Source: a virus (lineage: Duplodnaviria; Heunggongvirae; Uroviricota; Caudoviricetes). From it: a stretch of DNA of 64,000 nt. Position numbers and translations under genes: made by a program. The stretch lies in IMG/VR virus record IMGVR_UViG_3300032167_002310. The stretch is one strand, 5' to 3'. The notes below the pieces were generated by a model, which ran no database searches, was not told where the DNA came from, and saw only the letters and a program-made list of their open reading frames with translations. Shown one piece after another: positions 19,091 to 32,732 of this stretch. How positions within the stretch are numbered: position 1 is the stretch's first letter; the number at the start of each line of letters is the position of its first letter.

Positions 19091-19291
19091 TCAAGGGGTT
19101 TCAGAAATTATTTTCCAAAATGTTTGTTGCCATTCTTCCCACATCGGAATGAGCATTTCTTCATCTTGGGGGTTCAACTCACAATGGTAAACCAGTGCCC
19201 CATAGGCTTGTGCTTCAAACACGCTCGCAGAAACAGGGCGCTGTTCAGCAAGTTGTAATCGTGATAGTACAAACTTCGTAACTTGTTCCAT
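19091..19291 (-). CDS. hypothetical protein
   Basis: Start moved to MEQVTKF behind GAGGG RBS and promoter. Confidence 0.65.
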   Translation of the reverse strand: MEQVTKFVLSRLQLAEQRPVSASVFEAQAYGALVYHCELNPQDEEMLIPMWEEWQQTFWKIISETP

Positions 19292-19355
19292 TTTGTTTCC
19301 CTCACTTTCTATACATAGTATACACCATTTCGGGAGAAATGTCAACAGGTAATTT

Positions 19356-19433
19356 TGCACAATTTTCGCTCCAAAACTTTGTGGAATCTGCTAATTGACG
19401 AAATTCCGGCCCGCCGCAGGCGAAAACGGCCGG
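19356..19433. promoter_or_regulatory. dual-box module 1 (N14) plus GC hairpin
   Basis: TGCACAAT 19356, TTTGTGGA 19378, hairpin 19406-19433. Confidence 0.8.
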
Positions 19434-19479
19434 TTTTTGTGCAAAATGACGAAAAAATCGCCCTTTTGGGGCGATTTTT

Positions 19480-19848
19480 CTACTTTTTCGGCTTTCTTTT
19501 CTGCACAAGGGTCAATTCATAGTCATTTTCACCAACTTTGAAGGCGATTTGGCGCTCTTTATTGGTGATTTCGACCATTTCGTAGCCTTTTTCGCTCAAA
19601 AATGCCGAAATTTCTGCAATTATCTGCGATTTTGTCGCATTTTCCTTGCGAACTGGCGCTTTTCGTGGGGTTTTCACAGTTTTTTCGCCCACATTTGCGT
19701 ACTTCTTGGCGGCTTTCTCTTCTTCTTTGGAAAGGTCGAAGGACATTCGCTCGCCCCTGTCGATTGCCTTATCGTCTGCGATGACTTGCAGAGCCTCTTC
19801 TTCGCTGATACCCAAATTTTTCATCAGCTTTGCAACCTGTTCTGTCAT
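19480..19848 (-). CDS. hypothetical protein (paralog of 24089-24469)
   Basis: Shared LGISxEEAxQxxADDxAIDxG and EITNxERQ motifs. Confidence 0.8.
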   Translation of the reverse strand: MTEQVAKLMKNLGISEEEALQVIADDKAIDRGERMSFDLSKEEEKAAKKYANVGEKTVKTPRKAPVRKENATKSQIIAEISAFLSEKGYEMVEITNKERQIAFKVGENDYELTLVQKRKPKK

Positions 19849-19971
19849 AGTTATCAACTCCTTTACTGTACCCTTATTATAGCACAGTTAAGGCTATCTG
19901 TCAAGGGGTTTTGCAAAATTTTTTTCTACCGCCCTTTTAGGGGAGGGGGCATTTCTGCCCCCTTGGGGGAG

Positions 19972-20331
19972 TTAGGCTACTTTGGAGAAGTAAGCCTTTC
20001 TCTTTTCCTCTGTTCTCTCAACAGAGCCATCAGTTACCAACTGTCTGACAAGGGCAGACACTCTCTGATTGGACAACTCTGCACACGCAGGCACAGACTT
20101 CATCAAATCTGTGATAGTGTACTTCTTGCCGACTTCCATACCTTCAAGGATTTCAGCCTTGATGCCTTCGTTGGCAACCTGTACAGCAGTAGGTTTCTTT
20201 TCAGCAGAGTTTTTCTTTGCGAGCAATTCCAACTCGTGGTCGATGAACGCAATCTCGTCTGCGTTCAAGGCATAGTTTGCCTTAATCTGTTCAAACATTT
20301 CTCTCTTAGTCATCTTCTTAGTATTAGCCAT
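19972..20331 (-). CDS. winged-HTH protein, paralog 1
   Basis: YTITDLMK...LSNQRVSALVRQLV...VERTEEKRKAYF. Confidence 0.75.
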   Translation of the reverse strand: MANTKKMTKREMFEQIKANYALNADEIAFIDHELELLAKKNSAEKKPTAVQVANEGIKAEILEGMEVGKKYTITDLMKSVPACAELSNQRVSALVRQLVTDGSVERTEEKRKAYFSKVA

Positions 20332-20619
20332 AGTATCAATTCCTTTCTGGTTTGTTGGGTTTTCCTTCCCTTTGATGATTTAATTATATCATAGGTTGAG
20401 CGATTTGTCAAGAGGTTTTTTGAAGTTTTTTTATTTTTTTTCTCAACTCTCTGTTGACTTCTCTCTCCCTTTGATGTATTCATTATAGCACATCTTGGGG
20501 GATTTGTCAAGAGGTTTTTTGAAATTTCTTAAAAACTTTTTTTGACCTCTATCAATTCGGCTCTCCCTTACTGACAATAATAGTATACCACAGACCAAGA
20601 GAAAATACAAGTGTCAAAA

Positions 20620-20755
20620 TGCACAAATTTTAGGAAAATTATTTTTTATTTTTTGTGCAACTTTTCTCTTGACAAAATTTGCGGCCGGTGGTATAATGGA
20701 AAATTCCGGTCACGCTGGCCGTGACCGGGCCGGCGCTTTGTGCAAAATGCACAAA
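20620..20755. promoter_or_regulatory. dual-box module 2 (N24) with rightward promoter, hairpin and an extra TTTGTGCA-AAA-TGCACAAA palindrome
   Basis: Boxes 20620 and 20652; TTGACA 20669, TATAAT 20692; 9-bp stem 20706-20728; palindrome 20737-20755. Confidence 0.85.
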
Positions 20756-20832
20756 ACCCCCAGGGGAGCGAATCACCCCAGGGGTCAAGTGAAAATTGAG
20801 AGAGGGGAGGGAGGGGCTTGCGCCCCTTGCCC

Positions 20833-21192
20833 TTAGTCCACCTTGGAGAAGTAAGCCTTGCGCTTCTCCTCAGTGCGCTCCACAGAACCCTCAGTAACCA
20901 GCTGGCGCACCAGTGCGCTCACTCGCTGATTGGAGAGGTCAGCGCACGCATCGACACTCTTCATGAGGTCAGTAATGGTGTACTTCTTGCCACTCTCCAT
21001 GGCTTCGAGGATGTCAGCCTTGATACCCTCATTTGCGACCTGAACCGCAGTCGGCTTCTTCTCTGCGGAGTTCTTCTTTGCCAGAAGCTCCAGCTCATGC
21101 TCAACGAAAGCCTTTTCGTCAGCAGTGAGGTTGTAGTTTGCCATAATCTGGCGGAAGTAGTCAGCCTTAGTCATCTTCTTAACATTTGCCAT
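20833..21192 (-). CDS. winged-HTH protein, paralog 2
   Basis: Highly similar protein to 19972-20331. Confidence 0.75.
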   Translation of the reverse strand: MANVKKMTKADYFRQIMANYNLTADEKAFVEHELELLAKKNSAEKKPTAVQVANEGIKADILEAMESGKKYTITDLMKSVDACADLSNQRVSALVRQLVTEGSVERTEEKRKAYFSKVD

Positions 21193-21319
21193 AGTATCGT
21201 CTCCATTTCTCGCTATTGGTTGCGACCCTTTTTGAAGTTTCGTTCCTCTCTTGGAACATCTTAATTATACCACATGGGGTTTGATTTGTCAAGAGGTTTT
21301 CGAAAAAAATTCGCGACTT

Positions 21320-21512
21320 TTTTTCTTATCTTCGCTACTCGCCCACTTCTCAGCCTTGTTGCTGGCCCAGCCCTAAGTCTACCCTCACCACGCAATCGCT
21401 TTGCCACGCTCTGTGGGGGCTACTGGGATTCGTGTATCCTTTGGGTTTCAGTTCGCTTCGTGTCTGTTTCCACTGTCCTTGGTGGCTTTCGCTGTCAAGG
21501 TTCCCCTCTTGA
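21320..21512 (-). ncRNA. candidate structured ncRNA A
   Basis: Own promoter at 21519-21549; no credible ORF; GNRA-capped mini-hairpins (gcGAAAgc, tgGAAAca) and several stems. Confidence 0.45.
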
Positions 21513-21559
21513 CTGTAATCATTATACCACACTTTGCGGTATTTGTCAAGACCTTTTTT

Positions 21560-21755
21560 CAAGATTCTTGACTTTTTTGTGTGAGGTATTGTATCGCGCA
21601 TAATCCCCTATTACTTCAACCTCTGGGGCACTGGTTCACACTTGTATACCGCAAACGCGAACACCTTGCGGTCAGAAGCAAGAGCCTTGGCTCAAGGGGG
21701 AAGTCTTACATCGCTCTCGTGGGCTTCCCTCTTCGGGTCGCTTCCCTTAACTTCT
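21560..21755 (-). ncRNA. candidate structured ncRNA B
   Basis: Own promoter at 21761-21790; no credible ORF; stems accGCAAggt, gagcCAAGgctc, gggaag/cttccc. Confidence 0.45.
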
Positions 21756-21896
21756 GTATTTATTATAGCACACTCGGCGCTATTTGTCAAGAGGTTTTTT
21801 AACTTTTTTCAAAGTTTTTTTGAGCTCCTCTTGGGTGCTCCCCTCACCTGACATAGATAGTATACCACATCCAGAAGCAGATTGCAATAGACAGAA

Positions 21897-22016
21897 TGCA
21901 CAAATTACAGGATTTTTATTTCTCGATCTTTGTGCACATTTTCTCTTGACAAAAATGCCGGGGTATGGTATAATGGTAAATTCCGCGCGCTACGTTCGTG
22001 CGCGCGGCGCTGAAAT
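21897..22016. promoter_or_regulatory. dual-box module 3 (N24) with rightward promoter and hairpin
   Basis: Boxes 21897 and 21929; TTGACA 21946, TATAAT 21969; stem CCGCGCGC/GCGCGCGG 21983-22007. Confidence 0.85.
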
Positions 22017-22037
22017 CTCAAACAAAAAAGCGAGGGA

Positions 22038-22196
22038 TTAACCCTCGCATTCCTCGTTGCGGTCTTCAATTCGTTCCTTGATTGCCTGGATGGTAGTACC
22101 AATCAACAGACCAAGCATCTGCACACACAGACAGCCAACAACACCAACGAGCACCCAACCGATGTGGTCAGGAATTTGACAAATAAGTTCTAACAT
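22038..22196 (-). CDS. small membrane protein (52 aa)
   Basis: Manual translation MLELICQIPDHIGWVLVGVVGCLCVQMLGLLIG...; promoter and GAGGT RBS. Confidence 0.7.
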   Translation of the reverse strand: MLELICQIPDHIGWVLVGVVGCLCVQMLGLLIGTTIQAIKERIEDRNEECEG

Positions 22197-22253
22197 AGTA
22201 TCAACCTCTTTCCTTAATTTCTGTATTCATTATACCATGGGGGAGGGCTTTTG

Positions 22254-22991
22254 TCAAGCCCTTTCCCCACTATTTTTGAAAACTTTTTTCAAGTCCATTT
22301 CCTTGCGTGTTCTCTGGGGGATTCTCCAACACGCAGGGGAAATTTTAGTTTCAAGTTTTCTGTGCATTGCGTAACACTTTGCGAGAATTTCAACTTCAAT
22401 TCTCACATCCTCAAGTCCTGTGTGGCTTTCCACAAAATCAACTTGCTTTTTCAGAAACTTGTAACAAGCCTCAGCACTTGTCTGAATGTTGTCGCTTTCG
22501 CTAATTAAACCATTCTGTAAAGCAAATTTTACATAGGAAACTTGATTGAGAACCACTTGACAAGCCATGTTCCAAATGCAAATGTAATCAGTTCCCCAAG
22601 GGAAGAACCAACGCCAGCGAGATTGAGAACAATAGCGAATTGTATTATTCAATGCTCTCTTGTCAAAACCCATGTTGTAAGCACCCACCTTGCGAATGGA
22701 ATACTTTTTCATGTCCTCATGGATTTGCTTGCGAATGTTGAAAATGCTTTTCAAAGTGCGAGTGCCATTTTTAATGTCATCCCAATACTGGGGAATCTTT
22801 TCAGCAAAGTAGGCACTTTGCATCAAGTCTTTGTGGTCGAGGAACATTTCAGAAACCACAAAACTTCTTTCAAGGTAAATCTTGCCTTGTCTGTCACAGA
22901 TTGCATAGCCAATGTCATAGCACAAAGGCTGTTCAATGGTGTTTGCTGTTTCAGTGTCGATGATTAAAAATAATTCTTTCTTGCGAGCCAT
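22254..22991 (-). CDS. DEDDh 3'-5' exonuclease (DnaQ-like)
   Basis: ExoI IIDTET, ExoII AYNMGFD, ExoIII ESHTGLED. Confidence 0.85.
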   Translation of the reverse strand: MARKKELFLIIDTETANTIEQPLCYDIGYAICDRQGKIYLERSFVVSEMFLDHKDLMQSAYFAEKIPQYWDDIKNGTRTLKSIFNIRKQIHEDMKKYSIRKVGAYNMGFDKRALNNTIRYCSQSRWRWFFPWGTDYICIWNMACQVVLNQVSYVKFALQNGLISESDNIQTSAEACYKFLKKQVDFVESHTGLEDVRIEVEILAKCYAMHRKLETKISPACWRIPQRTRKEMDLKKVFKNSGERA

Positions 22992-23097
22992 GGGTATCAA
23001 ATCCTTTCGTATCAACTGTAATTATTATAGCACTTTCATTTTGATTTGTCAATAGGTTTTTGAAAAATATTTTGCGCCCGGGCGAAAAGCTGACCCA

Positions 23098-23571
23098 TTA
23101 AAGGGTCTTGCTTTCGCTCACAAAATACTTCACTTCATACTGTGCGAGAATGTCACGCACCTTTGCACTCTCTTTCTGTGTTGCACAGTAGAAATTGAAA
23201 AGGGTATATTTTCCAACATTTTCCACATAGTTGTGGGGAATGTCTTTCAAATCAAAATGTACTGCGTCAGTCCATTCGTGGGGAACAGTTGCTTCAACTT
23301 TCCAAAGTTTGTCCTTGCGTGCCTTTTCTTCGCACCACTTAACAACATACACACCAACAAGGTTGCACAGAGCCACAATGCCAGCCTTTAAGTAAAGGTC
23401 AAGTTCACACATTAAGTAAACAGTGACAATTGTGTAAAGACCAAAAGCAACAGCATTTACGATTGCGGCGACCCCTTTACCGCACTTCACAGTGGCGATA
23501 CTTTTCACTGTCTGAATGATAACATTCAGAATGTTAAGAATGATAAATGTAATAAGTAACTGTGTATTCAT
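23098..23571 (-). CDS. membrane protein, DUF2179/UPF0316-like
   Basis: Three N-terminal hydrophobic helices (NVIIQTVKSI...GxxxxAAIVNA) plus a soluble C-terminal domain. Confidence 0.6.
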   Translation of the reverse strand: MNTQLLITFIILNILNVIIQTVKSIATVKCGKGVAAIVNAVAFGLYTIVTVYLMCELDLYLKAGIVALCNLVGVYVVKWCEEKARKDKLWKVEATVPHEWTDAVHFDLKDIPHNYVENVGKYTLFNFYCATQKESAKVRDILAQYEVKYFVSESKTL

Positions 23572-23614
23572 AGCGTTTACCTCTTTCGTTTCTTTCTGTA
23601 ATTATTATAGCACA

Positions 23615-23860
23615 TCAATGCTCGTTTGTCAATACCTTTTTTTCACTTTTTATCATATTTTTTGTAAAAGCATCGGAGAACTCATCCCCATACTCATCGC
23701 TGACAAGATAGGCGAGGTATTCCATTACAGTGCTCACCCCATACATGAAATGCTCATTGCCATTCTTTGCATCGTACCGACCGCAGAACAGACCGCATTC
23801 TGTCATTCCGTCAACTACCTTTTCGATTACTTTCTTTTCCTCTTGGTTCAGTTCTAACAT
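23615..23860 (-). CDS. hypothetical protein
   Basis: Start moved to MLELNQEE behind AGGAGG RBS and promoter. Confidence 0.7.
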   Translation of the reverse strand: MLELNQEEKKVIEKVVDGMTECGLFCGRYDAKNGNEHFMYGVSTVMEYLAYLVSDEYGDEFSDAFTKNMIKSEKKVLTNEH

Positions 23861-23922
23861 CGTTCTATCCCTCCTGACATTATTAGTATACCACGTTTCG
23901 GGAGATTTTGCAATAGGCAATT

Positions 23923-24086
23923 TGCACAAATTTTCGCCCGCATTTTTGTTGAAATTAACTATTGACAGGAATACCGGCCCGCGCACTTGTGCACGGGCGG
24001 CCATTATACCACAGCCGGCCCGATTTGTCAAGTGGTAAAAATGCACAAAAATTAGGGCGAAAGTTTGTGACTTTCGCCCATTGACA
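23923..24086. promoter_or_regulatory. dual-box modules 4 and 5 (both N14) with intervening hairpin
   Basis: Boxes 23923/23945 and 24042/24064; TTGACA 9 bp right of each right box (23962, 24081); hairpin 23977-23998. Confidence 0.8.
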
Positions 24087-24088
24087 AG

Positions 24089-24469
24089 TTAGGAACGAGG
24101 GGCAGACAGTACCACCTTAAACTTTCGCCCATTGCAGTGGAAAAGCATTTCCCTCTCGGCGTTCGTAACCTCAATTCCCTCAATGCTTTCCAATCCCTCA
24201 AGGGCTTGCTTGATTTCGTCAATCAGCATTGCCTTGTCGTTGTCGGCTTTGCGTTCTCTCTTGGTTGTGGTCTTGGTTGTGGTGGTGGTCTTTGTTCCAA
24301 TGGCTCTTGCCTTTTTGCTTGCCTTTTCTTGCTCGGCACTCAACTCAAAGAGTTTTGCTCCCTTGTCGATTGCTTCATCATCAGCGACCAACTGTTCGGC
24401 TTCCTCTCGGCTGATACCTAACAGACCCATGTGCTTGGCAATCAGTTTTTCTCTCTCGGATGCTGTCAT
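24089..24469 (-). CDS. hypothetical protein (paralog of 19480-19848)
   Basis: Shared motifs; sits downstream of a wHTH paralog as at 19.5-20.3 kb. Confidence 0.8.
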   Translation of the reverse strand: MTASEREKLIAKHMGLLGISREEAEQLVADDEAIDKGAKLFELSAEQEKASKKARAIGTKTTTTTKTTTKRERKADNDKAMLIDEIKQALEGLESIEGIEVTNAEREMLFHCNGRKFKVVLSAPRS

Positions 24470-24557
24470 AGGCAATCCCCCTTTCTGTAATTACATTATA
24501 CCACACATCAAAGGGGTTGTCAAGGGGAAATTTGCATTTCCCCTTGACTTTTTTCCC

Positions 24558-24917
24558 TTAGTCAGCGAGGGAGAAATAAGCCTTACGCTTTTCCTCAGTT
24601 CGCACAACCACGCCATCAGTGACGAGCTGACGAACAAGAGCAGACACACGCTGGTTGCTCAGTTCGGCACAGGCAGGAATGGTCTTCATCAGGTCAGTGA
24701 TGGTGTAGGACTTACCCTGCTCCATACCTGCGACAATGTCGCCCTTAATGCCCTCATTAGCCACCTGCACAGCGGTAGGCTTCTTCTCGGCACTGTTCTT
24801 CTTTGCGAGCAGTTCGAGTTCGTGGTCAATGAACTCAACCTCAGCCTCAGTCAGAGGGTAGGAAGCCTTAATCTGCTCGAACATCTCACGCTTAGTCATC
24901 TTCTTAGTGTTTGCCAT
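24558..24917 (-). CDS. winged-HTH protein, paralog 3
   Basis: MANTKKMTKREMFEQIKA identical to the paralog 1 N-terminus. Confidence 0.75.
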   Translation of the reverse strand: MANTKKMTKREMFEQIKASYPLTEAEVEFIDHELELLAKKNSAEKKPTAVQVANEGIKGDIVAGMEQGKSYTITDLMKTIPACAELSNQRVSALVRQLVTDGVVVRTEEKRKAYFSLAD

Positions 24918-25308
24918 AGTATCAATCTCCAATCTCGTGGTAGGTCACGACCCAAGTTTTTATTCTGTAAGAGGTGTCCCTCTTTACATTCTTATTATAG
25001 CACATTGGGAGTTGTTTGTCAAGAGGTTTTTTCAACTTTTTTTTTATTTTTTTTGTTGACCTCTCAGTAGGTTTTCCCTTACCTTGTATAACTATTATAG
25101 CATACTCTTTAGGATTTGTCAATACCTTTTTCAAAACTTTTTTAGAAATTTTTTGGTAATGGCTTTTTCCTTTTTTCTATAATAATTATAACATAATTTT
25201 TTTATTTTGTCAATAGGTTTTTTCAAAATCTTTTTGATGGGATTTTGTTCTCTCCCTTACTGACAATAATAGTATACCACATCAGCCACCAAAATACAAG
25301 TGGCAAAT

Positions 25309-25419
25309 TGCACAAAATTACAGGAAAATCTTTGTGCATTTTGCCTATTGACAAATTGCTCGAAAAATGTTATAATGGAAGGTTAGGCCAAAACACCGGT
25401 CCGCGCGCACGTGGACCGG
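25309..25419. promoter_or_regulatory. dual-box module 6 (N14) with rightward promoter and hairpin
   Basis: Boxes 25309 and 25331; TTGACA 25348, TATAAT 25371; stem 25396-25419. Confidence 0.85.
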
Positions 25420-25474
25420 CCGATGCATTTTGGATTTTGAAATGGAAAAAGCGAGGGTTTCCCCTCGCTCTTCC

Positions 25475-25627
25475 TTATCGCGTTCTCTGCTTCGTTGTCA
25501 GCGAATAGGCAACCCCATTCTCAAAAATGACTTCGTCCTTTGTGATGGACGCAACCACCATACCTTCGGGGTTGCTCATGTTTGCGCGAATCTCATTCAG
25601 TGCATTTGCTACTTCTCGAATACTCAT
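25475..25627 (-). CDS. small hypothetical protein (50 aa)
   Basis: Manual translation MSIREVANALNEIRANM...; own promoter, AAGGAG RBS and terminator. Confidence 0.7.
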   Translation of the reverse strand: MSIREVANALNEIRANMSNPEGMVVASITKDEVIFENGVAYSLTTKQRTR

Positions 25628-25701
25628 AGTATCATTCTCCTTTTCTTTTGGTTTGTACTTGTATTATAGCATAGGTTTGGGGGTTTGTCAACCCCCATTT
25701 T

Positions 25702-25947
25702 TTACTTTTTTGCGCTTACGCTCTTGGGACTGTCATTGGTCAAGGGCATCTGCGGAGTGGGAGCTTGTGCTTTGGTGATGATTGCATCAACCTGCTCATA
25801 GAGTTTGTAAGCCTTGCTCGCCTTGCGATAGACTTTCTTCAACTCGGAGTAGGTAAGAGCATTGAACTGCTCGTCACTCATTGTGACCCCAACCTTTGCC
25901 AACTTGTTGCGGATAGATTTCAAACTCATTTCGGAAAACATTTTCAT
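25702..25947 (-). CDS. basic hypothetical protein
   Basis: 81 aa with own promoter and GAGGT RBS. Confidence 0.7.
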   Translation of the reverse strand: MKMFSEMSLKSIRNKLAKVGVTMSDEQFNALTYSELKKVYRKASKAYKLYEQVDAIITKAQAPTPQMPLTNDSPKSVSAKK

Positions 25948-26221
25948 AGTAACAACCTCTTTTCTTTATTTTCTATAATTATTATACCACATTTTTATTT
26001 AATTGTCAATAGTCTTTTTCAATTTTCTTGAACTTTTTTCTATTGTACGAGCCTTTGCCCTTTTTGTTCTCGACTACCGACCCACGCTTGCGAAAGTGCA
26101 AATACTGTTGCAGTTCTTCGCCCTCTTTCTTAAAAATGCGATTGTCAATGGTTTTCTTCTTTTTCATTTATCTCACCTCTTGGTATTATTATAGCATACC
26201 TTTGGGGGTTTGTCAACCCCC

Positions 26222-26710
26222 TTAGGCAACTTTTTTCTTTCTGCCACGCTTAGGCACATAGTTTTTGTAGTCCTTGCCACACTTCTGCAAATTGTGGAGA
26301 GTGTCGAAAGTGACAATCTGTGCGCCGTTGAATTTGATTTGATACTCAATGCCGTTCACATTGACATCACCACCAACCCAAAAGCCGTCATTATCCCAAT
26401 CTCTTGCGACCTGACCGAAGTATCTCTGTACCCACATTTCAAAGTTTCTGCCGTTGTTGCCGTTGGTTACTTCGTAGTCGATTTCGATTGCGCCCTTGCG
26501 AATGAGCTGTTCCATGTGCTGATTAGTCAGTCGAAGCTGAAGCTTTTCCTTGCCACCCTTTTTGCTTGCTTCTTTTTCTACTCGAATGAAGCGAGGCATG
26601 ATTTCATCAACGATTGCCATGTAGTTCTTCTTCTTGTAAGTGAAACCGAGGATGTAACCCTGTGCGCCACTAAACTTTCTGTAGTATCTGATTGCGTTTC
26701 CCTTAGTCAT
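26222..26710 (-). CDS. putative PD-(D/E)xK nuclease-fold protein
   Basis: GRNFE...GGDV...YQIK motif spacing; start moved to MTKGNAI. Confidence 0.5.
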   Translation of the reverse strand: MTKGNAIRYYRKFSGAQGYILGFTYKKKNYMAIVDEIMPRFIRVEKEASKKGGKEKLQLRLTNQHMEQLIRKGAIEIDYEVTNGNNGRNFEMWVQRYFGQVARDWDNDGFWVGGDVNVNGIEYQIKFNGAQIVTFDTLHNLQKCGKDYKNYVPKRGRKKKVA

Positions 26711-26803
26711 TGTTCCTGTCTCCTTTTCTGTTCCGTTCTTTGTATCTTTATTATAGCACCGCATTGACCGTTTGTCAAGCACTTTTTTTATTTTTTTTGA
26801 AAA

Positions 26804-26890
26804 AGATGAGGGGCTTTTAGGGGCGTCCCCCAAGGGGTTTGAACCCTTTCTGCTTGAGCGGCTCAGCATTAAACCTCACCCCTCATCTGT
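26804..26890 (-). ncRNA. small RNA containing a tRNA-Glu-like T-arm and 3' acceptor strand
   Basis: Promoter at 26897-26925; 10-bp closing stem AGATGAGGGG/CCCCTCATCT; AAGGG-TTCAAAC-CCCTT-GGGGGAC-G-CC. Confidence 0.55.
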
Positions 26891-26934
26891 AAGTACAGTA
26901 TAACACACTCCCCAATAGAAGTCAATAGTCAAAA

Positions 26935-27046
26935 TGCACAAATTTCAGGAATTTGACCTCTCGCAACTTTGTGCAAATTGCCTATTGACAAAATGCTGAG
27001 GAAGTGTTATAATGGAAATTCGTGCCGCCTGGGTCGTGGGCGGCGC
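26935..27046. promoter_or_regulatory. dual-box module 7 (N25) with rightward promoter and hairpin
   Basis: Boxes 26935 and 26968; TTGACA 26985, TATAAT 27008; stem 27022-27046. Confidence 0.85.
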
Positions 27047-27064
27047 GCCAAAAAGGCGAGAGCG

Positions 27065-27283
27065 TCAAATTGCTCTCGCCCTGATTTGGGTGGGCTTGAT
27101 GTCTGCGTGACCCTTGTAGGCGTAATACTCAACCCATTCATAGGTGTTGCCACAGTGGTCACAGCCACCGACCACGCTCATTGCGATTGTGCCTGTGTCG
27201 AGGTCTTCAACATCGTAGTGTGAGATAGAAATGAGGGAGCCGCCGCAAGTGGGGCAAGTGGGTTCATTCGTGTTAATCATCAT
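27065..27283 (-). CDS. zinc-ribbon protein
   Basis: CPTCG...CDHCG. Confidence 0.75.
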   Translation of the reverse strand: MMINTNEPTCPTCGGSLISISHYDVEDLDTGTIAMSVVGGCDHCGNTYEWVEYYAYKGHADIKPTQIRARAI

Positions 27284-27356
27284 GGGGTATCAGTTCCTTT
27301 CCTCTTGGTGTAATTAAATTATAGCACAACGGTTTGAAAATGTCAAGGGGAAATTC

Positions 27357-27806
27357 TCACATTTCTGCGAGAATTTCCAAGATGTTCTGCACATCATAAG
27401 CCTTGCCAGTCCAGTTTGTTCTGTTGCGTTCTTCATCATCGAAAAGCACATCGAGAGGAGTTTTGCAGAAGTTCTGCTTTGGTGTGCCGTAAGGTACAAT
27501 GTGGATTTCGTTCCAGTTGACACTTGGCAGATGTTTCTTGAGCCAATCCATTTTGACTTCGGTAACTGCTCTGTTGTATTCTTCTGTGCCACTCTTGCTC
27601 AGCCAAGAGATAACTGCGATGTTGTAGCCATTTCTCTGGAGAGTGTTAAGTCTGCGAGCGAGAGTTGCAAGTCTAAGCAGAGGCTTTGCGTTTGCGTAAG
27701 GGAATGTGTCGCCTGCGATGAGGTATTCGAGCCAGTTTTCTACTCCATAGAGGTCAGCGATTGTGCCGTCCATGTCAAAGTTGATTGTGATGTTCATAGT
27801 CTTCAT
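27357..27806 (-). CDS. HAD-superfamily 5'(3')-nucleotidase-like phosphatase
   Basis: Motif I FDMDGT, motif II ISW, K, motif IV LFDD. Confidence 0.85.
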   Translation of the reverse strand: MKTMNITINFDMDGTIADLYGVENWLEYLIAGDTFPYANAKPLLRLATLARRLNTLQRNGYNIAVISWLSKSGTEEYNRAVTEVKMDWLKKHLPSVNWNEIHIVPYGTPKQNFCKTPLDVLFDDEERNRTNWTGKAYDVQNILEILAEM

Positions 27807-27917
27807 TGTGTTTACTTCCTTTCCTTTTTTGTATCTTAATTATAGCATGGATTTTCGTGTTTGTCAATAGGTTTTTGAAAAGTTTTTTATTTTTTTTGAC
27901 CGGGGAAAGTGGGGGAC

Positions 27918-28592
27918 TTAGTCCACCCACTTCGGAAAGCACTTGTTGTACTCTCTGCCCTTTGCGTCCCACTGGTGAATGTTCTTGTTGAATTTCTTGT
28001 GCATTTTCAGACAAGCCACAAAGATTTCCATTTCGATGAGTGCGTCAGCCAGTGCAGTGTGTTCTTCGATGTAGTCAGCATTTCCAGTGATGAAGCCATA
28101 GACAGTCTGTGCAGTAGTAGAGCAAGACTTCTTGGAAGAGGACTGGAAGCCATTCTCGTGGCAGAAGTTCGCAAAGCCTTTCTTGTGGCAGATGGTCTGC
28201 AAAGCCATCAAGTAAATGTCGATGAACTCAAACTCGTCGAGCAGTTCTCTGCAAATAGTCTTGGTAAAGTCGAAAGCAGAGTTGTAAGCCATTACATAGC
28301 GAACACCATAGAACTTGCAAAGGTTGCGAACGATGGAAAGTGCTTCGGCTTCGGTAGCCACCGCAGACATTTCGCCAGTCATCAGTCTTTCGCGATAGAT
28401 AGGGAAGTTCTTCTTTGCGTAATCGTCCTGTGCGATTTCGTCATAGTGTTCCATTACAAGCAGAGAAGCGGTTGCGAAAATGTTGCCCTCTCTGTCGTGG
28501 ATAGTGCAACCGAGGTTGTACATTCCAGTAGGATTAGAAGCTCCGCCAACAGTTTCAGTATCAAGTGTGCAGTAAATAATTTTCTTGTTCAT
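27918..28592 (-). CDS. DEDDh 3'-5' exonuclease (paralog of 22254-22991)
   Basis: LDTET, AYNSAFD, EEHTALAD. Confidence 0.85.
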   Translation of the reverse strand: MNKKIIYCTLDTETVGGASNPTGMYNLGCTIHDREGNIFATASLLVMEHYDEIAQDDYAKKNFPIYRERLMTGEMSAVATEAEALSIVRNLCKFYGVRYVMAYNSAFDFTKTICRELLDEFEFIDIYLMALQTICHKKGFANFCHENGFQSSSKKSCSTTAQTVYGFITGNADYIEEHTALADALIEMEIFVACLKMHKKFNKNIHQWDAKGREYNKCFPKWVD

Positions 28593-28699
28593 TGTTATCA
28601 ATTCCTCTCTCAATTTCTGTATTTATTATAACATAGGTTCGTGGGTTTGTCAATAGGTTTTTCAAAACTTTTTTAATTTATTTTGTACGGGCGGTTGGC

Positions 28700-29113
28700 T
28701 CACATCGAGCCAACCATTGTAATCCCTCTGTCTTTCAACCATTCGCAGAACTGTTCAGCAGGGAGCAAGTCCGCAAGGTCTTTCATTGTGTACATTCTTG
28801 TAACCTCTTCCCATTCCCACCTGACACGAATGGGCTTGAAAGTCTTTTCTGTCATTTTGCTTTTGTTTCTGTAGAAGTCGCCCCAACCAATTTCGATGGT
28901 CGGACGATTGCGAAATAGAGTGCAACCAGTTTCTGCATTTCTGATTCTGTGGTCACGAACTGCCGCAAATGCTTCTTCAAAGGTTTCGAGTGTGTATTCT
29001 GTCGTGTTACACTCGCCAACTTCCACATAGCGAATGTGATTCCAAATGGAAGTGTCGCAGTAGTCATCATTGCCGATTGCCGCATAGCATCTAAGGTTTA
29101 CTAATTTCTTCAT
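28700..29113 (-). CDS. hypothetical protein
   Basis: 137 aa with own promoter and RBS. Confidence 0.75.
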   Translation of the reverse strand: MKKLVNLRCYAAIGNDDYCDTSIWNHIRYVEVGECNTTEYTLETFEEAFAAVRDHRIRNAETGCTLFRNRPTIEIGWGDFYRNKSKMTEKTFKPIRVRWEWEEVTRMYTMKDLADLLPAEQFCEWLKDRGITMVGSM

Positions 29114-29171
29114 AGTATCAATTCCTCTCTCTTGGTTTCTGTAATTATTATACCACGGCTTAGGGGTTTTG

Positions 29172-29495
29172 TCAACCCCTAATCGTAAATAATTCTGGAT
29201 GTCTTTGACAATTTTTCATTACTCGCTTTTCCATTTTAGGTGACATCTGCCCCTTGCCCGCCATTCTGTAAAGACGATAGCACTGATTGACATTTGCCAT
29301 AAATGCAGTTATCACAATGTCACGATACAAATTCTTAACAATGATAATTCCACTACTGGTTAGCAAGTACCTCTTTTCTTCTTCAATTACTTCAACTTCA
29401 AGCACAGGGTTTGTGAAGCCGAGAACTTCTTCCAATGCTTGCAGTCGGTTTGCTCGTTCCACTCCTGCGTGGAATGTAGTATTCATAGGTTTCAT
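29172..29495 (-). CDS. hypothetical protein
   Basis: Start moved to MKPMNTTF. Confidence 0.7.
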   Translation of the reverse strand: MKPMNTTFHAGVERANRLQALEEVLGFTNPVLEVEVIEEEKRYLLTSSGIIIVKNLYRDIVITAFMANVNQCYRLYRMAGKGQMSPKMEKRVMKNCQRHPELFTIRG

Positions 29496-29511
29496 CTTTA
29501 GTATCCCCCTT

Positions 29512-29694
29512 TCATGCTCTAAGTATACCATACTTTGAGATGTTTGTCAATACCTTTTCGTACCATTTTTTGCGACTTACCAACTTAATGCCGAGAACCT
29601 CAGCAACCTTGTTGTAAGTCTGTTCGTCGATTGCGTTGCGTACTTCCTCAGGCTGTTCGCTCCAAGGTCTGTCAATAGTAATGTTCATCATCAT
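29512..29694 (-). CDS. small hypothetical protein
   Basis: 60 aa with promoter and GAGGGG RBS. Confidence 0.6.
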   Translation of the reverse strand: MMMNITIDRPWSEQPEEVRNAIDEQTYNKVAEVLGIKLVSRKKWYEKVLTNISKYGILRA

Positions 29695-29762
29695 AGTTAT
29701 TACCCCCTCATCTTTTGTACCTTAAGTATACACCATTTCGGGATGTTTGTCAAGCACAAAAT

Positions 29763-29840
29763 TGCACAAATTTTCCACGAGATTTTTGTGCAGATTACCT
29801 CTTGGCAGAAACACCGCGCGCCACAGCCGACAGCGCGCGG
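29763..29840. promoter_or_regulatory. dual-box module 8 (N14) plus hairpin
   Basis: Boxes 29763 and 29785; stem CCGCGCGC/GCGCGCGG 29814-29840. Confidence 0.8.
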
Positions 29841-29874
29841 CCGAAAAAATAAAAAGAGAGGGTTTCCCCTCTCC

Positions 29875-30084
29875 TTAATTGCTCTTGGAACTCGATTTGA
29901 AAAAGCCACCTACAAAACTGAGCAGAGCGCAGATGCCGAAAGCCTGCCAAAATGTTAGAGCAAACGCACAGCCGAACAGGCTCATCACCCAGTTAAACAG
30001 AAGCATCCCAATCCATGCCTCGAAACACACAACGCCGAACACCAGTGCCAGCGCGAGAATTACCATCAAACAACCTTCACCCAT
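29875..30084 (-). CDS. small membrane protein
   Basis: Two hydrophobic helices. Confidence 0.75.
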   Translation of the reverse strand: MGEGCLMVILALALVFGVVCFEAWIGMLLFNWVMSLFGCAFALTFWQAFGICALLSFVGGFFKSSSKSN

Positions 30085-30156
30085 TGTATCTATCTCCTTT
30101 TCTTTTCTTTGTATTATTATTATACCATAATTTTAATTGATTGTCAAGGGGAATTT

Positions 30157-30489
30157 TTACATTCCCCTCATTGTTGTTATTGCTTCCATTACCCACTCTT
30201 GAAAGTGAGATTTAATAAATTCTACTGTATCAAGATCAGCGCAATTAAAATAATCTTTGCGAATGCGCCGAGCCTTTTGTGTTTTTAGAATTTTCATTCG
30301 CAAAAAACTTTCTACAAATAGCCTTTCGCATTCTCCGCCGCCAATGTCTAATGATTGAAGAATTAAATAATCTTCTTGGAGCAACTGATTACTTCTACGC
30401 CTTGCATTAGTCGTTTCCCCAATTTTGATTGCCGTTCTAATTTCTAAATGTTCTGCGTAATACACTTCTGAATAACATCCGTAAGCCAT
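30157..30489 (-). CDS. GIY-YIG/T5orf172-like small protein
   Basis: IKIGETTNARRRSNQL motif; AT-richer than neighbours. Confidence 0.5.
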   Translation of the reverse strand: MAYGCYSEVYYAEHLEIRTAIKIGETTNARRRSNQLLQEDYLILQSLDIGGGECERLFVESFLRMKILKTQKARRIRKDYFNCADLDTVEFIKSHFQEWVMEAITTMRGM

Positions 30490-30568
30490 TTTTACCACTT
30501 CTTTCTGTTTCTTTCTGTAATTATTATAGCACAAGGGGTTGAGTTTGTCAACCCCTTTTTGCATTTTT

Positions 30569-30994
30569 TTACTTTACTTCAACAATCAGTTTGTAAGCTC
30601 GGCAAGAGCCAAAACCATAGCGATTGTAAGTAGTTTCTTCCCACCTTACAGACAGACAATGCTGAGCAAGATACTCTTCAATGAAAGTCTTGTGATAGTT
30701 CTTGTCAGTGCAAGGAGAATAACTCCAATCTCCATTTGCATACTTCTTGCCATCGAAACGAATAGGACGCAGTACCTCGTTGCCGTAAGCATCGGAAGCC
30801 ATAGCGAGGTCAATAGAAGTTGAAATCAGTCCACCCTTAGGGTTGAGAGCCTGCTTCTCAAGGGCAGGTCCAATCTCAGTTTCACAGAATTCAACACTCG
30901 CACCCAACAGACGAGCAAGACTTTCTGCCTTTTCTTTTTCCCACTTCATTACGCTTGCATTTCTCACAATTGCCAGTTCACTTGCACACATCAT
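30569..30994 (-). CDS. hypothetical protein
   Basis: Start moved to MMCASEL behind AAGGAG RBS. Confidence 0.7.
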   Translation of the reverse strand: MMCASELAIVRNASVMKWEKEKAESLARLLGASVEFCETEIGPALEKQALNPKGGLISTSIDLAMASDAYGNEVLRPIRFDGKKYANGDWSYSPCTDKNYHKTFIEEYLAQHCLSVRWEETTYNRYGFGSCRAYKLIVEVK

Positions 30995-31082
30995 AGTTAT
31001 CAGTCTCCTTTTGTTTTCCTTTTTTGTATCTTTATTATAACATGGAGGGGGCTTTTTGTCAAGCCCCTTTTTTAATTTTTTT

Positions 31083-31337
31083 TTAGCAATCATAAGTGTA
31101 ACATCCTTCGTAAGGGTCAAAGCCAAAATCGTCATCAATGTCAGCAGGCTCTTCGTAGTCCTCTTCCTCAGGGTCGTAGAAGGCTACTACTTCGCCAGTT
31201 TCATCCCACACAAGGGAAGCAGTCTGGCAAGTCATCTCTGCGATGGTCTTAGCTGCTTCGTAGCAAGCATAGCAAGCTTCAGTACCACTAATAGTAGCGA
31301 TAGCGTTGTTGTTAATGTAGATAGTATAAGTGTTCAT
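31083..31337 (-). CDS. small acidic protein with DDDFGFDPYEGCYTYDC tail
   Basis: Start moved to MNTYTIY behind GAGGT RBS and promoter. Confidence 0.75.
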   Translation of the reverse strand: MNTYTIYINNNAIATISGTEACYACYEAAKTIAEMTCQTASLVWDETGEVVAFYDPEEEDYEEPADIDDDFGFDPYEGCYTYDC

Positions 31338-31420
31338 AGGTTGTACCTCTCTCTCTTTCTTTGTATCTATAGTATACCATGCGCGCAGGTATTTTGTCAA
31401 GGGTTTTGGGAGATTTATTT

Positions 31421-31508
31421 TACACAAATTTACGCCGATTTTGCAAGCCTTTTTTGTGCAGGTTTTACAATAGCACCAATCAGGCGCGCCAGGACCGTGC
31501 GCGCGCCT
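31421..31508. promoter_or_regulatory. dual-box module 9 (N24, degenerate left box) plus hairpin
   Basis: TACACAAA 31421, TTTGTGCA 31453; stem AGGCGCGC/GCGCGCCT 31482-31508. Confidence 0.75.
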
Positions 31509-31567
31509 ATGGCGGTCTTTCTGTATTAGTGTAGTATTAGTAGTAGTGTGTAGTAGCACACACTGCA

Positions 31568-31858
31568 TTAGTGTGTGCTTACTCCTACTACCTCATCATC
31601 ATAGATGTATCCATCAGTGTGTGCTGTGTACATGTGTACATCTACCACTGTGCCTACGCTTGGTGCTGTGCCCTCTACCTCATAGCACCACACATGTCCT
31701 TGCTTGTCCTCTACCTCTGCAAGCTGTCCTTCTGTGTGTACTACTACGCAGTCCTTGCGTGTGTAGTGTGTCTCTACGTAGCCGCACAGCCCCAGCATGC
31801 CCATGAACACTACTACTACCAACAGTATAGTCATCATCTCTGTTACTCTCTTACTCAT
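31568..31858 (-). CDS. membrane-anchored/secreted small protein
   Basis: N-terminal hydrophobic helix; own promoter and GAGGT RBS. Confidence 0.75.
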   Translation of the reverse strand: MSKRVTEMMTILLVVVVFMGMLGLCGYVETHYTRKDCVVVHTEGQLAEVEDKQGHVWCYEVEGTAPSVGTVVDVHMYTAHTDGYIYDDEVVGVSTH

Positions 31859-32015
31859 TGTATCTACCTCTTTCTTTACTTCTTTCTTTGTATCTTTATT
31901 ATACCATTACAGGAGGTTTGTGTCAAGCTTTTTTTACACGTTTGTGCAGACTTTTTTCTGTGCCTCCTGGCTCTGTGGCAGTTAGGGATAGCAGGGCCGC
32001 ACACGGTAGCTACCC

Positions 32016-32351
32016 TTACAGAGTAGCTATTACCTTAGCCAGTGCCTCAGTATCCATTGCCTCATAGTGTGTCATGATAGTAGCAAGCATAGCCTTTCTC
32101 TCTGCTTCTCTCTGTCTCTTAGCTGCTTGTGCTTCTTTGTACTGTGCTACCTCTGTTGCGTCGTAGCTGTAGCTCTTCTCTCCGTACATGTATGCTGTGC
32201 GCACTGTGCCATCCTCTTGGTGTACGTTGATAGTCTTGCTTGTGTGGTAAAGCATAGGTCTTGCTTCAGCAGGTGCGCATTCCTTAGTATAGTAGGTGTG
32301 TCTGTGTGTCTCATTGTTTCTTACTACGTAGATTGTGCTGATGTGTTTCAT
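32016..32351 (-). CDS. hypothetical protein (first gene inward from the putative genome end)
   Basis: Start moved to MKHISTIY behind GAGGT RBS and promoter at 32385. Confidence 0.75.
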   Translation of the reverse strand: MKHISTIYVVRNNETHRHTYYTKECAPAEARPMLYHTSKTINVHQEDGTVRTAYMYGEKSYSYDATEVAQYKEAQAAKRQREAERKAMLATIMTHYEAMDTEALAKVIATL

Positions 32352-32424
32352 TGTGTGTACCTCTCTCTTCCTTTGTTGTACCCTTAGTATAACACGTTTC
32401 GGGAGGTTTGTCAATAGGTAGATT

Positions 32425-32500
32425 TGCACAATTGTTGCGCCCTTTATTTGTGCAAGATGTATACCATGCCAACCAGGGCCGCGCCATCCATGCACGGCCC
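32425..32500. promoter_or_regulatory. dual-box module 10 (N14) plus hairpin
   Basis: TGCACAAT 32425, TTTGTGCA 32447; stem GGGCCG/CGGCCC 32476-32500. Confidence 0.8.
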
Positions 32501-32732
32501 AGCGTATGTATTAGTATGTACATCATTGTGTTGTTTATTATTTATTATTATTATCTATTGTTGTATGTATAGATAGATGTGTATGTGTTATGTACTCATT
32601 ACCTCTTGGTCATTGTGTATGTATCTCTTTGTATGTACATGTGCGTAGCTCTGTAGGGCGTAGAGAGGGGCGTACCTCTCTGTCTGTGTGTGTGCCTGTG
32701 CTGTGTATGCCAACATACCCGGGGGGGTGTAT
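32501..32732. other. non-coding low-complexity TG/TA-rich tract ending at ATACCC-G7-TGTAT; candidate physical genome end
   Basis: Dinucleotide bias stops abruptly at about 32720. Confidence 0.45.

Follow-up and report, generated by a model that had tools for sequence, protein, structure and literature searches.

In Bacillus phage phi29, the sites for the regulator p4 lie between promoters A2c/A2b and A3 and follow the consensus CTTTTT-15 bp-AAAATG; the same bound protein switches on a weak promoter while repressing strong ones (PMC3100819). Boxes for the host regulator Spo0A are located in the early promoters and origins of phages phi29 and Nf (PMC2731898). The element described here, a set of paired inverted boxes in the early-gene region of a large gut phage, resembles the p4 sites in its widely spaced inverted repeats, which lie about two turns apart from centre to centre, between divergent phage promoters and upstream of a core promoter. 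It resembles the Spo0A case in that sites of a putative host regulator would stand within the early control regions of a lytic phage, tying its development to the state of the host. The K-boxes of ComK, the competence factor of Bacilli, consist in Bacillus subtilis of two AT-boxes (AAAA-N5-TTTT) with spacers of 8, 18 or 31 bp, and they share with our element the two units, the spacers differing by whole turns, the single DNA face and the location upstream of a promoter. The position just upstream of -35, about -40 to -60, is also that of the UP element, the alpha-CTD site of sigma-70/sigma-A promoters. Finally, repeated early-promoter/stem-loop units bounding small early genes in a plastic region recall the PeSL (promoter-early stem-loop) cassettes of T4-type phages, reportedly described by Arbiol et al. 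in 2010.

The box sequence of our element is TGCACAAA/TTTGTGCA rather than the CTTTTT-N15-AAAATG with A-tracts of p4, the spacers of the element fall into three classes whereas the p4 sites have one, and no p4 homolog (Pfam PF05464) was found at E<=0.1 in the 192-kb phage genome. Unlike the p4 sites, the box is shared by host chromosomes and unrelated phages, and the reader is thus probably not phage-specific. The 0A box TGTCGAA is not enriched (2 copies in 17-35.5 kb, none in the modules), and the -35 geometry is much stricter here than for Spo0A boxes. The AAAA-N5-TTTT unit of ComK differs in sequence from our box; UP elements differ in that our box has a conserved GTGC core, is sequence-specific, occurs in palindromic and paired forms and obeys a quantised spacing; and PeSL cassettes have neither the conserved upstream box pair nor a host chromosomal counterpart. 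Since many unrelated phages of Clostridia show the same arrangement, which also precedes ordinary host genes, the box pair is most likely the docking site of a putative host regulator.

The window, i.e., the whole stretch of DNA analysed, comprises 64,000 nt of this 192-kb genome. The exact octamer occurs in it 18 times against 4.8 expected (maximum of 9 in 100 shuffles), and perfect pairs number 5 against 0 expected; the entire genome contains 26 exact octamers, 18 of which fall within 19.4-32.5 kb. Each read base by base, the ten inverted TGCACAAA/TTTGTGCA pairs have spacers of 14 (six pairs), 24 (three) or 25 (one), and they are listed below with a related palindrome.

19356..19385: first pair, TGCACAAT-N14-TTTGTGGA
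20620..20659: second pair, N24, both boxes perfect; TTTAGGAA in the spacer, adjoining the left box
21897..21936: third pair, N24, both boxes perfect
23923..23952: fourth pair, N14, with TTTGTTGA as its right box
24042..24071: fifth pair, N14, with TTTGTGAC as its right box
25309..25338: sixth pair, N14, both boxes perfect
26935..26975: seventh pair, N25, both boxes perfect
29763..29792: eighth pair, N14, both boxes perfect
31421..31460: ninth pair, N24, with TACACAAA as its left box
32425..32454: tenth pair, N14, with TGCACAAT as its left box
20737..20755: everted palindrome of 19 bp without mismatch, TTTGTGCA-AAA-TGCACAAA, flanked by the module 2 GC hairpin and the end of the second wHTH gene

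Five pairs are perfect, and the remaining five carry one or two mismatches in total, in the variant boxes given in their lines. A scan of the 192-kb genome that allowed up to two mismatches in total and spacers of 0-60 returned these ten pairs and seven loose ones, the latter at the chance level (1-10 in shuffles); the ten, which an earlier note on this DNA had noticed only inside 19.3-32.5 kb, are the sole such pairs of the whole genome. The paired boxes are separated by 22 or 32-33 bp from centre to centre, corresponding to two or three whole helical turns, which places both on the same side of the DNA.

The modules lie within the early-gene region, in which they are accompanied by the following features; all promoters in this analysis are consensus matches rather than mapped transcription starts.

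18155..34927, minus strand: early-gene region with 30 perfect leftward consensus promoters carrying A-tract upstream elements
19317..19345, minus strand: box-linked leftward promoter typical of its class, TTGACA-17-TATACT
20610-20582, 21887-21859, 23913-23885 and 25299-25271, minus strand: further box-linked leftward promoters (-35 start to -10 end)
26925-26897, 29753-29725, 31400-31371 and 32414-32386, minus strand: further box-linked leftward promoters, continued
20669..20697, plus strand: perfect rightward promoter, TTGACA-17-TGnTATAAT, 9 bp past the right box
21946-21974, 25348-25376 and 26985-27013, plus strand: further perfect rightward promoters
20706..20728: GC-rich hairpin flanking module 2
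19406-19433, 21983-22007, 23974-24002 and 25396-25419: other GC-rich hairpins
27022-27046, 29814-29840, 31482-31508 and 32476-32500: other GC-rich hairpins, continued

This region holds 34 of the genome's 39 perfect extended promoters. In nine modules, 9 or 10 bp separate the left box from the leftward -35; in the module at 31421 the gap is 20, which puts the -35 one helical turn further out than in the other modules. A TTGAC(A)/TTGGCA hexamer lies exactly 9 bp past the right box in eight of the ten. Nine of the ten leftward boxed promoters use TATACT; the exception is the consensus TATAAT promoter at 24031, the leftward partner of module 24042, which runs directly into a GC hairpin. TATAAT is likewise the -10 of the region's remaining 29 perfect leftward promoters. 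The proximal box is positioned at about -52 to -45, where the strong consensus promoters carry their A-tracts, and the boxed promoters are a second, weaker class with the box in place of A-tracts. Each perfect rightward promoter is followed by a GC-rich hairpin about 8-19 bp past its -10 hexamer. All checkable details of the earlier note, namely the ten pairs, their spacers of 14, 24 and 25, the -35 distances and the use of TATACT, were accurate. Its description of a bidirectional switch fits only the four modules that have a complete rightward promoter, and of the pairs elsewhere it fits 6% of the N14 kind and 27% of the N24 type. Like the p4 sites, the pairs stand between divergent promoters, with boxes 9-10 bp from -35 on either side; both promoters are complete in only these 4 of the 10 modules.

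The spacing rule is not confined to this phage. An exact scan of IMG/VR with spacers of 12-27 gave 59 pairs at 14, 35 at 24, 8 each at 25 and 13, 7 at 15 and at most 4 at any other length; after related contexts were collapsed to 91 independent ones, 38 remained at 14, 13 at 24, 6 at 25 and 7 at 15, with at most 4 at the rest, and kinship among the sequences inflates all counts, these and those that follow. In relatives that carry the wHTH gene, the spacers are 14 (44 cases), 23 (14), 24 (21), 25 (2) and 31 (10). The 14/24 rule also applies in IMG/VR phages without any detectable protein in common with the window phage, and the pair is present within both terminal repeats of protein-primed phages of about 13 kb, which have no BLAST-detectable protein in common with the window. 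The rule is thus kept in homologous and unrelated phages alike, which was the check that the earlier note itself had proposed, and its idea that a protein binds the boxes along one face of the DNA, a set distance away from -35, looks supported. Among 642 unique boxes in phage loci, a -10 hexamer lies 32-33 bp past the box in 187 and 42-43 bp past it in 57, two peaks one turn apart. TATACT is found in 47 of 138 boxed against 125 of 1132 unboxed promoters (odds ratio 4.2, p 3e-11), and weak -35 hexamers are enriched among boxed promoters as well (odds ratio 2.0, p 3e-4). The segment between box and -35 is conserved (TGCCTATT), yet it is no degenerate half-site, and a simple two-dimer model is therefore not supported.

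For half of the exact boxes in phage loci, no partner can be recognised, an observation that also fits a stand-alone promoter element. Such an element would be read by RNA polymerase itself, through the alpha C-terminal domain or sigma and with no separate factor, and pairs would arise from back-to-back promoters; the location of the box at the position of A-tract upstream elements and the fixed -10 distance of about 30% of the 642 boxes, with its second peak one turn out, also agree with this explanation. However, we consider it rather unlikely. N14 pairs are flanked by no, one or two promoters in 54, 67 and 8 cases, respectively, so that the second box mostly serves no second promoter, and independent promoters would not need a quantised inter-box spacer. 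Furthermore, the box has a G/C core, unlike the known A/T-rich upstream elements, the everted N3 palindrome is shaped like a dimer operator, and the distance from box to TTGACA is not fixed in host genomes. The pair behaves as a unit rather than as two promoter add-ons.

Upstream of chromosomal genes in the host clade, the motif is present far more often than chance predicts, as a co-opted site of a host regulon would be. Among the 80 bacterial matches to the N14 form listed, about nine in ten belong to gut or rumen Clostridia (Oscillospiraceae, Ruminococcus, Lachnospiraceae and similar). Five host genomes contain 3-15 sites against 0-2 for a control, and 401 genomes of the order to which a Faecalibacterium genome belongs have 33 copies of the everted 19-bp palindrome TTTGTGCA-N3-TGCACAAA, spread over 23 of them, against 0 for the control, some "host" contigs possibly being prophage or mis-binned DNA. 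The everted form has a spacer of 3 in 55 of 71 cases, equivalent to one helical turn from centre to centre, as is typical of a dimer operator. One point against the host-regulator reading is that the same protein would have to accept inverted (N14/N24) as well as everted (N3) half-sites. Chromosomal palindromes precede genes for an msmX-like ATPase, a YabE-like protein, a sugar isomerase, homoserine dehydrogenase (hom) and rplU-rpmA, and the msmX-like and isomerase genes may have either the paired or the everted form upstream. In the five host genomes the box-to-TTGACA distance is scattered, with no fixed value, and the palindrome of host promoters lies further upstream, at about -62 to -75; hence the geometry in the phage is no simple copy of that in the host. 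The element is not a phage-private switch of the kind that the earlier note had in mind, because it is present both in phages without a detectable common protein and before Clostridia chromosomal genes. A literature search returned no published description of the element and no published motif matching the box, and neither the search nor our analysis tied a candidate protein to it.

One Oscillospiraceae genome carries an identical N14 pair on 8 contigs, which could be taken to mean that the modules serve chiefly as boundary cassettes (promoter, box, GC hairpin, terminator), mobile or recombinogenic, by which early genes are shuffled; the conserved box would then reflect the spread of cassettes and not regulation. 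In the phage, the modules indeed punctuate one-gene units, with hairpins and terminators on their flanks, and two module sequence subtypes recur within the genome. We regard this as improbable, since spacer sequences vary while spacer lengths and box stay fixed and the same box precedes single-copy host genes, all of which points to selection on binding rather than copying; moreover, a cassette is compatible with a protein-binding role instead of being an alternative to it.

Inverted repeats may also act as RNA or DNA hairpins, such as attenuators, terminators or processing sites. Both arrangements can form 8-bp stems, and three Bacilli matches have longer, terminator-like ones, but these stems are A/U-rich and therefore weak in pairing, their loops have quantised lengths (3, 14 and 24), the arm sequence itself is conserved across distant phages and hosts beyond mere complementarity, the predicted promoters that accompany the pairs lie downstream of them, and Rfam gave no match; a hairpin function is accordingly very improbable. 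Even less credible are operators of the redox repressor Rex, to which the earlier note had likened the box. A Rex operator is a palindrome of 18-20 bp, TTGTGAA-N4..6-TTCACAA, which in Clostridia takes the form TTGTTAA-N4-TTAACAA. The half-site TTGTGCA is one base off the Rex half-site consensus TTGTGAA. However, sites with up to two mismatches to TTGTGAA-N4..6-TTCACAA or TTGTTAA-N4..6-TTAACAA overlap no module, the sole near-perfect one being located at 15653, outside the region; the half-sites of the pairs are oppositely oriented and 14 or 24 bp apart, and the arms of the everted form are one base closer than in a Rex site. The note's fallback of a host factor is thus the better reading, with Rex dropped as that factor.

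The earlier note had suggested the triplicated wHTH protein as a possible reader, and the phage encodes a second candidate DNA-binding protein, of the AbrB/MazE fold.

19972..20331, minus strand: wHTH-like protein, 119 aa; paralogs at 20833-21192 and 24558-24932 (85-86% identity)
33209..33472, minus strand: AbrB/MazE-fold protein, 87 aa (PF04014, E 5e-9)

Each of the three wHTH genes is downstream of a box module and two or three tandem consensus promoters, and three of the four modules with complete divergent promoters head the promoter arrays that drive these paralogs. Boxes and pairs occur in nearly all relatives with a wHTH protein of 50% identity or more; box-bearing relatives retain the putative recognition helix NQRVSAL, whereas it is different in the box-less L040 and L043 and in L041, which has a TTAACAAA box instead. 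In the protein, a linker rich in Pro and Lys joins a helical N-terminal part to the C-terminal wHTH, a layout that could tolerate several spacings. The AbrB-fold gene belongs to the first leftward operon, transcribed from the promoter at 34927 and upstream of all modules, and recurs in the loci of 23 of 36 relatives. A private early switch run by either protein is nevertheless unlikely. Co-occurrence of wHTH and box is confounded by common descent, and relatives L028 and L031 keep the recognition helix yet have almost no boxes. The wHTH assignment is itself weak (Pfam matches near or below cut-off, no PHROG or PDB sequence match, Foldseek E-values >1), and host AbrB/SpoVT genes have no boxes upstream. 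Because the wHTH profile is absent from four of five host genomes with chromosomal palindromes, and the unrelated box-bearing phages, including those of about 13 kb, share no BLAST-detectable protein with the window, the triplicated protein is unlikely to be the general reader.

The reader is probably a host protein, and we lean towards a host factor that would sit upstream of the promoter, bind the two boxes from the same face of the DNA and probably help weak promoters. A single protein complex would occupy both boxes, be it a dimer whose heads are separated or a pair of cooperating units, and, being wholly upstream of the core promoter, would act on RNA polymerase from there. It would most likely recruit polymerase to promoters with TATACT or a poor -35 in the manner of a class I activator, an activating sign that we infer solely from box position and promoter quality; an opposing perfect promoter may be held back by the factor, as A2c is by phi29 p4. 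This would couple some of the early genes, the three wHTH paralogs among them, to the state of the host regulator. More tentatively, it is possible that a widely conserved regulator of gut and rumen Clostridia with a TTTGTGCA regulon was hard-wired by very different phages, from protein-primed ones of 13 kb to those of 190 kb, as a p4-like two-way early switch, bound to one face of the DNA in a fixed helical register, with weak TATACT promoters turned on and opposing consensus promoters held back, to which large phages may add an AbrB-fold or wHTH protein at the same sites.

The box represents a regulatory code that uncultured Clostridia of gut and rumen have in common with many of their phages, and the strict 3/14/24 spacing makes a clear structural prediction. 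The reader protein, once found, would define a host regulon with genes for sugar transport, the cell wall and ribosomal proteins, would account for the link between a subset of early phage genes and host physiology, and would yield a portable factor-dependent promoter module for organisms with few genetic tools.

The ten inverted pairs of a conserved octamer, the box, lie where the earlier note placed them (starts at 19356, 20620, 21897, 23923, 24042, 25309, 26935, 29763, 31421, and 32425), with spacers of 14 bp in six, 24 in three, and 25 in one; half of the pairs match perfectly, and the other five have one or two mismatches. The window contains the exact octamer 18 times where 4.8 copies would be expected, and 18 of its 26 genome-wide copies lie within 19.4-32.5 kb. 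The confinement of the pairs to this region also holds, as a scan of the entire genome, with mismatches permitted and spacers of up to 60, recovers the same ten, and the 7 loose pairs found elsewhere are at chance level. The promoter geometry described there stands as well. In the modules, each consisting of a box pair, flanking promoters (consensus matches), and a GC hairpin, the left box lies 9-10 bp from the -35 of a leftward promoter in nine cases and 20 bp in one, the right box lies exactly 9 bp from a TTGAC(A)-like hexamer in eight, and the leftward -10 is TATACT in nine of the ten; four module promoters have a poor -35 (TTGTAT, TTGCAA). All perfect leftward promoters carry phased A-tracts immediately upstream of the -35, and the -10 of these A-tract promoters is TATAAT in every case. 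Since the boxed promoters mostly use TATACT and some have a poor -35, there are two promoter classes, and in the boxed class the box replaces the A-tract upstream element.

The window corresponds to positions 65246-129245, read on the reverse strand, of a 192-kb IMG/VR record with an estimated completeness of 98%. An 8-kb segment searched by megablast returned no close relatives among GenBank phages; the portal protein has distant relatives (30-38% identity) in gut phage Phass-1 and large Enterococcus phages, and animal faecal and bovine gut metagenomes contain near-identical DNA. Small genes point leftward from ~34.9 kb to 18 kb, and from 35 kb onward the direction is rightward, with structural genes and a gene for a sigma factor; the rightward structural module contains an open reading frame of 3085 aa at 51980-61237, and one base at 39930 differs between the window and the same stretch of the genome record. 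Of the 39 perfect TTGACA-17-TGnTATAAT promoters in the genome, 34 fall in the leftward region, and 30 of these are on the minus strand. Tandem leftward promoters spaced ~90-100 bp, with no credible intervening gene, occur at 25213/25122/25022, 20510/20411, and 21790/21549/21292. The principal features of the region are as follows.

18155-34927, minus strand: extreme early-promoter array of 30 perfect promoters (consensus TTGACA-17-TGnTATAAT with phased A-tracts)
19317-19345, 23885-23913, 29725-29753, and 32386-32414: (C/T)CCCGAAA in the -35/-10 spacer of boxed promoters (motif match)
20737-20755: perfect everted palindrome TTTGTGCA-AAA-TGCACAAA (sequence scan)
20669-20728, 21946-22007, 25348-25419, and 26985-27046: promoter-into-hairpin units
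24031-23974, leftward: promoter-into-hairpin, mirrored copy

The modules fall into two sequence subtypes. Subtype one (20620, 21897, 25309, and 26935) has a complete perfect rightward promoter and a TnnAGGA motif adjoining the left box; subtype two has a -35-like hexamer alone on its right side, and in four modules of this subtype CCCGAAA lies within the spacer of the leftward promoter. In other phages, (C/T)CCCGAAA directly adjoins one box, and RGGA/TCCY occurs in 32 of 45 spacers of 23-25 bp; the motif may be a second recognition element. Right of each module stands a very GC-rich hairpin, and beyond it lies the terminator belonging to the leftward gene upstream. At the five promoter-into-hairpin positions listed above, perfect promoters run directly into hairpins of this kind (23-29 nt, GC-rich), in antisense orientation to the upstream gene's end. 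Three of the four two-promoter modules stand at the start of tandem promoter arrays for the three wHTH-like paralogs. Plus-strand C-poor, low-complexity stretches lie immediately right of modules 9 and 10 (31520-31600 and 32500-32620).

Early genes (32868-33206, 33475-34332, 27357-27806, 22254-23015, and 27918-28613 among them) include an S24 peptidase-like protein with no evident HTH, a FolD-like dehydrogenase/cyclohydrolase (phrog_7320), two exonuclease-like paralogs (phrog_20187), and an NT5C-like nucleotidase, the family most often common to box-bearing loci. A permissive Rfam search of 17-36 kb found no RNA family, its three matches all being at chance level. RNA-library contigs from one gut metatranscriptome study (X15 and X16; strain ~95% identical) partially cover the early region, wHTH genes included; they are contigs without starts, strands, or levels, may include DNA carry-over, and their coverage gaps are uninformative. 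In the source DNA run, depth spikes to 82 at 32525-33125 (vs ~12), and numerous loose contig ends lie near 32554. Contig joints in the DNA run from ~18172/27896 to 32534 were set aside, their sides being just 21-24 letters long and probably reflecting repeated promoters.

The earlier note asked whether the spacer rule is kept elsewhere, and it is, both in relatives and in other phages. An exact IMG/VR scan for both boxes, covering all spacers of 12-27, yielded 59 pairs at 14, 35 at 24, 8 each at 25 and 13, and 7 at 15, with every other length at 4 or fewer. Among 91 independent contexts (IMG/VR, the window, and relatives' loci; spacer 0-45), obtained by merging those that share flank or spacer sequence, the counts were 38 at 14, 13 at 24, 6 at 25, and 7 at 15; the preference survives this collapse, and the rule is thus not a product of copying. 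The 36 relatives' loci found via the wHTH protein gave 44 at 14, 14 at 23, 21 at 24, 2 at 25, and 10 at 31. Of 71 everted arrangements, 55 have a spacer of exactly 3. Spacers of 3, 14, and 24/25 therefore set the box centres ~11, 22, and 32-33 bp apart, i.e., one, two, and three helical turns. The distance from box to -10 hexamer is 32-33 bp for 187 of 642 unique phage-locus boxes and one turn further for 57.

Canonical-distance promoters numbered 0, 1, and 2 at 54, 67, and 8 of the N14 pairs (14-bp spacer) and at 40, 31, and 26 of the N24-type pairs. The second box therefore usually does not serve a second promoter, and the box pair is a unit. A reading in which two dimers each use a degenerate promoter-proximal half-site was rejected: the segment concerned is conserved as TGCCTATT but is a poor match to the half-site, agreeing at an average of 2.7 of 6 positions. 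TATACT is found in 47 of 138 boxed and 125 of 1132 unboxed promoters of the same loci (odds ratio 4.2, p 3e-11), and a poor -35 is likewise commoner in the boxed ones (odds ratio 2.0), although these counts are inflated by relatedness of the loci. Their direction agrees with a site that makes up for weakness in the core promoter.

The boxes extend to phages without any BLAST-detectable protein in common with the window phage, among them ~13-kb phages with a protein-primed-type DNA polymerase and an N24 pair in both terminal inverted repeats. In L112, an IMG/VR contig of 13,100 bp, and in L055, L072, L082, L150, and others, these repeats are ~75 bp long, the pair lies ~17 bp from the genome end, and the polymerase is of family B. 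All-against-all BLAST clustering of ~115 box-bearing loci found no protein family in more than 21 of them, and a phage protein common to all as the reader, the protein presumed to bind the boxes, was accordingly rejected. L041, a contig with a 46% identical wHTH, has consensus promoters with a different upstream element abutting the -35:

6039, 8536, 9795, and 10792 of L041: examples of TTAACAAA-N3-TTAAC
934-1031 of L041: array of three TTAACAAA-type boxes at 11-bp intervals

Boxes also precede chromosomal genes of gut and rumen Clostridia, which upholds a host factor as the alternative reader, though not Rex. In a scan of bacterial contigs with one genome per species, about nine in ten of the N14 matches listed belong to Oscillospiraceae, Ruminococcus, Acutalibacteraceae, Lachnospiraceae, and related Clostridia, and five such genomes hold 3-15 sites each versus 0-2 for the reversed control. 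The adjacent genes are diverse and ordinary (ECF sigma factors, solute-binding proteins, ABC ATPases, MatE, LacI-family regulators, and sugar isomerases), and no recurring regulator gene stands out. A sample of 401 genomes, drawn from the order to which a Faecalibacterium genome belongs, has 33 copies of the perfect 19-bp everted palindrome, two boxes with a 3-bp spacer, spread over 23 genomes, against 0 for the control. The palindrome precedes msmX-like ATPase, YabE-like (DUF348-G5-3D), xylose-isomerase-like, homoserine dehydrogenase, and rplU-rpmA genes; because msmX-like and isomerase genes carry either form, one reader is suggested for both. At several host promoters the palindrome centre lies ~62-75 bp upstream of the start, an activator-like position. 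A fixed host spacing was rejected, as box-to-TTGACA gaps are scattered in five genomes. By these sequence comparisons the element is not private to phages, and with unrelated phages also carrying it, the bidirectional switch of the phage's own put forward in the earlier note is not borne out.

In G002, the Oscillospiraceae genome behind L167, eight contigs carry an identical N14 pair with spacer GAAAAAGGAATATT, suggesting that the site belongs to a multi-copy mobile element; a 315-aa ORF adjoining the pair has no Pfam match. In the bacterial contig L270, five N14 pairs and several everted palindromes stand among LexA-type boxes (GAAC-N4-GTTC) at 741-7600, which looks like a prophage early region.

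The triplicated wHTH proteins (genes at 19972, 20833, and 24558) had been proposed as readers. Their family matches are borderline and their fold matches weak: no PHROG family and no PDB sequence match below E 0.38 was found, and a single-sequence model (pLDDT 74) gave only winged-helix or MarR-like Foldseek matches, all at E>1. The putative recognition helix does track the box, being kept in box-bearing relatives and different in two boxless relatives and in one that uses TTAACAAA-N3-TTAAC, but shared ancestry accounts for this just as well. Four of five host genomes carrying chromosomal palindromes lack the profile; in the fifth, the match shares its contig with two palindromes, and that contig may therefore be phage DNA. 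This absence, with the weak fold evidence, speaks against the wHTH as reader. Rex, the host factor named earlier, fails since no Rex-type operator overlaps any module. At 15653-15670, beyond the early region, stands a clostridial Rex-type site that is near-perfect, with one mismatch to TTGTTAA-N4-TTAACAA; several TTTGTACA boxes lie nearby (15529-15625). An AbrB/MazE-fold protein is encoded in the first leftward operon and recurs in 23 of 36 relatives' loci, and AbrB/SpoVT-domain proteins are present in all five host genomes tested; autoregulation via boxes was rejected, as no box lies upstream of six such host genes. Spo0A-type control (0A boxes not enriched) and a CodY-like reading of some spacers (matches too poor) were likewise discarded, and a literature search on the octamers found no matching published motif, returning primers and unrelated items.

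Box position, helical phasing, weaker core promoters, and host chromosomal counterparts are the observations on which a mechanism can be built. Most likely, a host protein would bind both boxes on one DNA face, wholly upstream of the core promoter, and act on RNA polymerase from there. The phage phi29 p4 protein activates a weak promoter and holds strong ones back. Its system is the closest worked example, alike in its paired sites and promoters on both sides; no p4 homolog is found in the phage, which speaks against p4 as the reader. The p4 site is CTTTTT-15 bp-AAAATG between divergent promoters (PMC3100819). By analogy, the factor would assist the TATACT promoters and, in the four two-promoter modules, could hold back the opposing consensus promoters. 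However, half of the boxes lack a partner, the distance from box to promoter is not fixed in hosts, and a single protein would need to recognise inverted as well as everted arrangements.

The box pairs are thus most likely a host-factor operator built into phage promoters, a kind of arrangement already known. The analysis adds the relatedness-corrected spacing statistics, the N3 everted operator form with its host regulon context, the link to weak promoters, the evidence for the pair as a unit, and the tests against wHTH, Rex, and p4 as readers.
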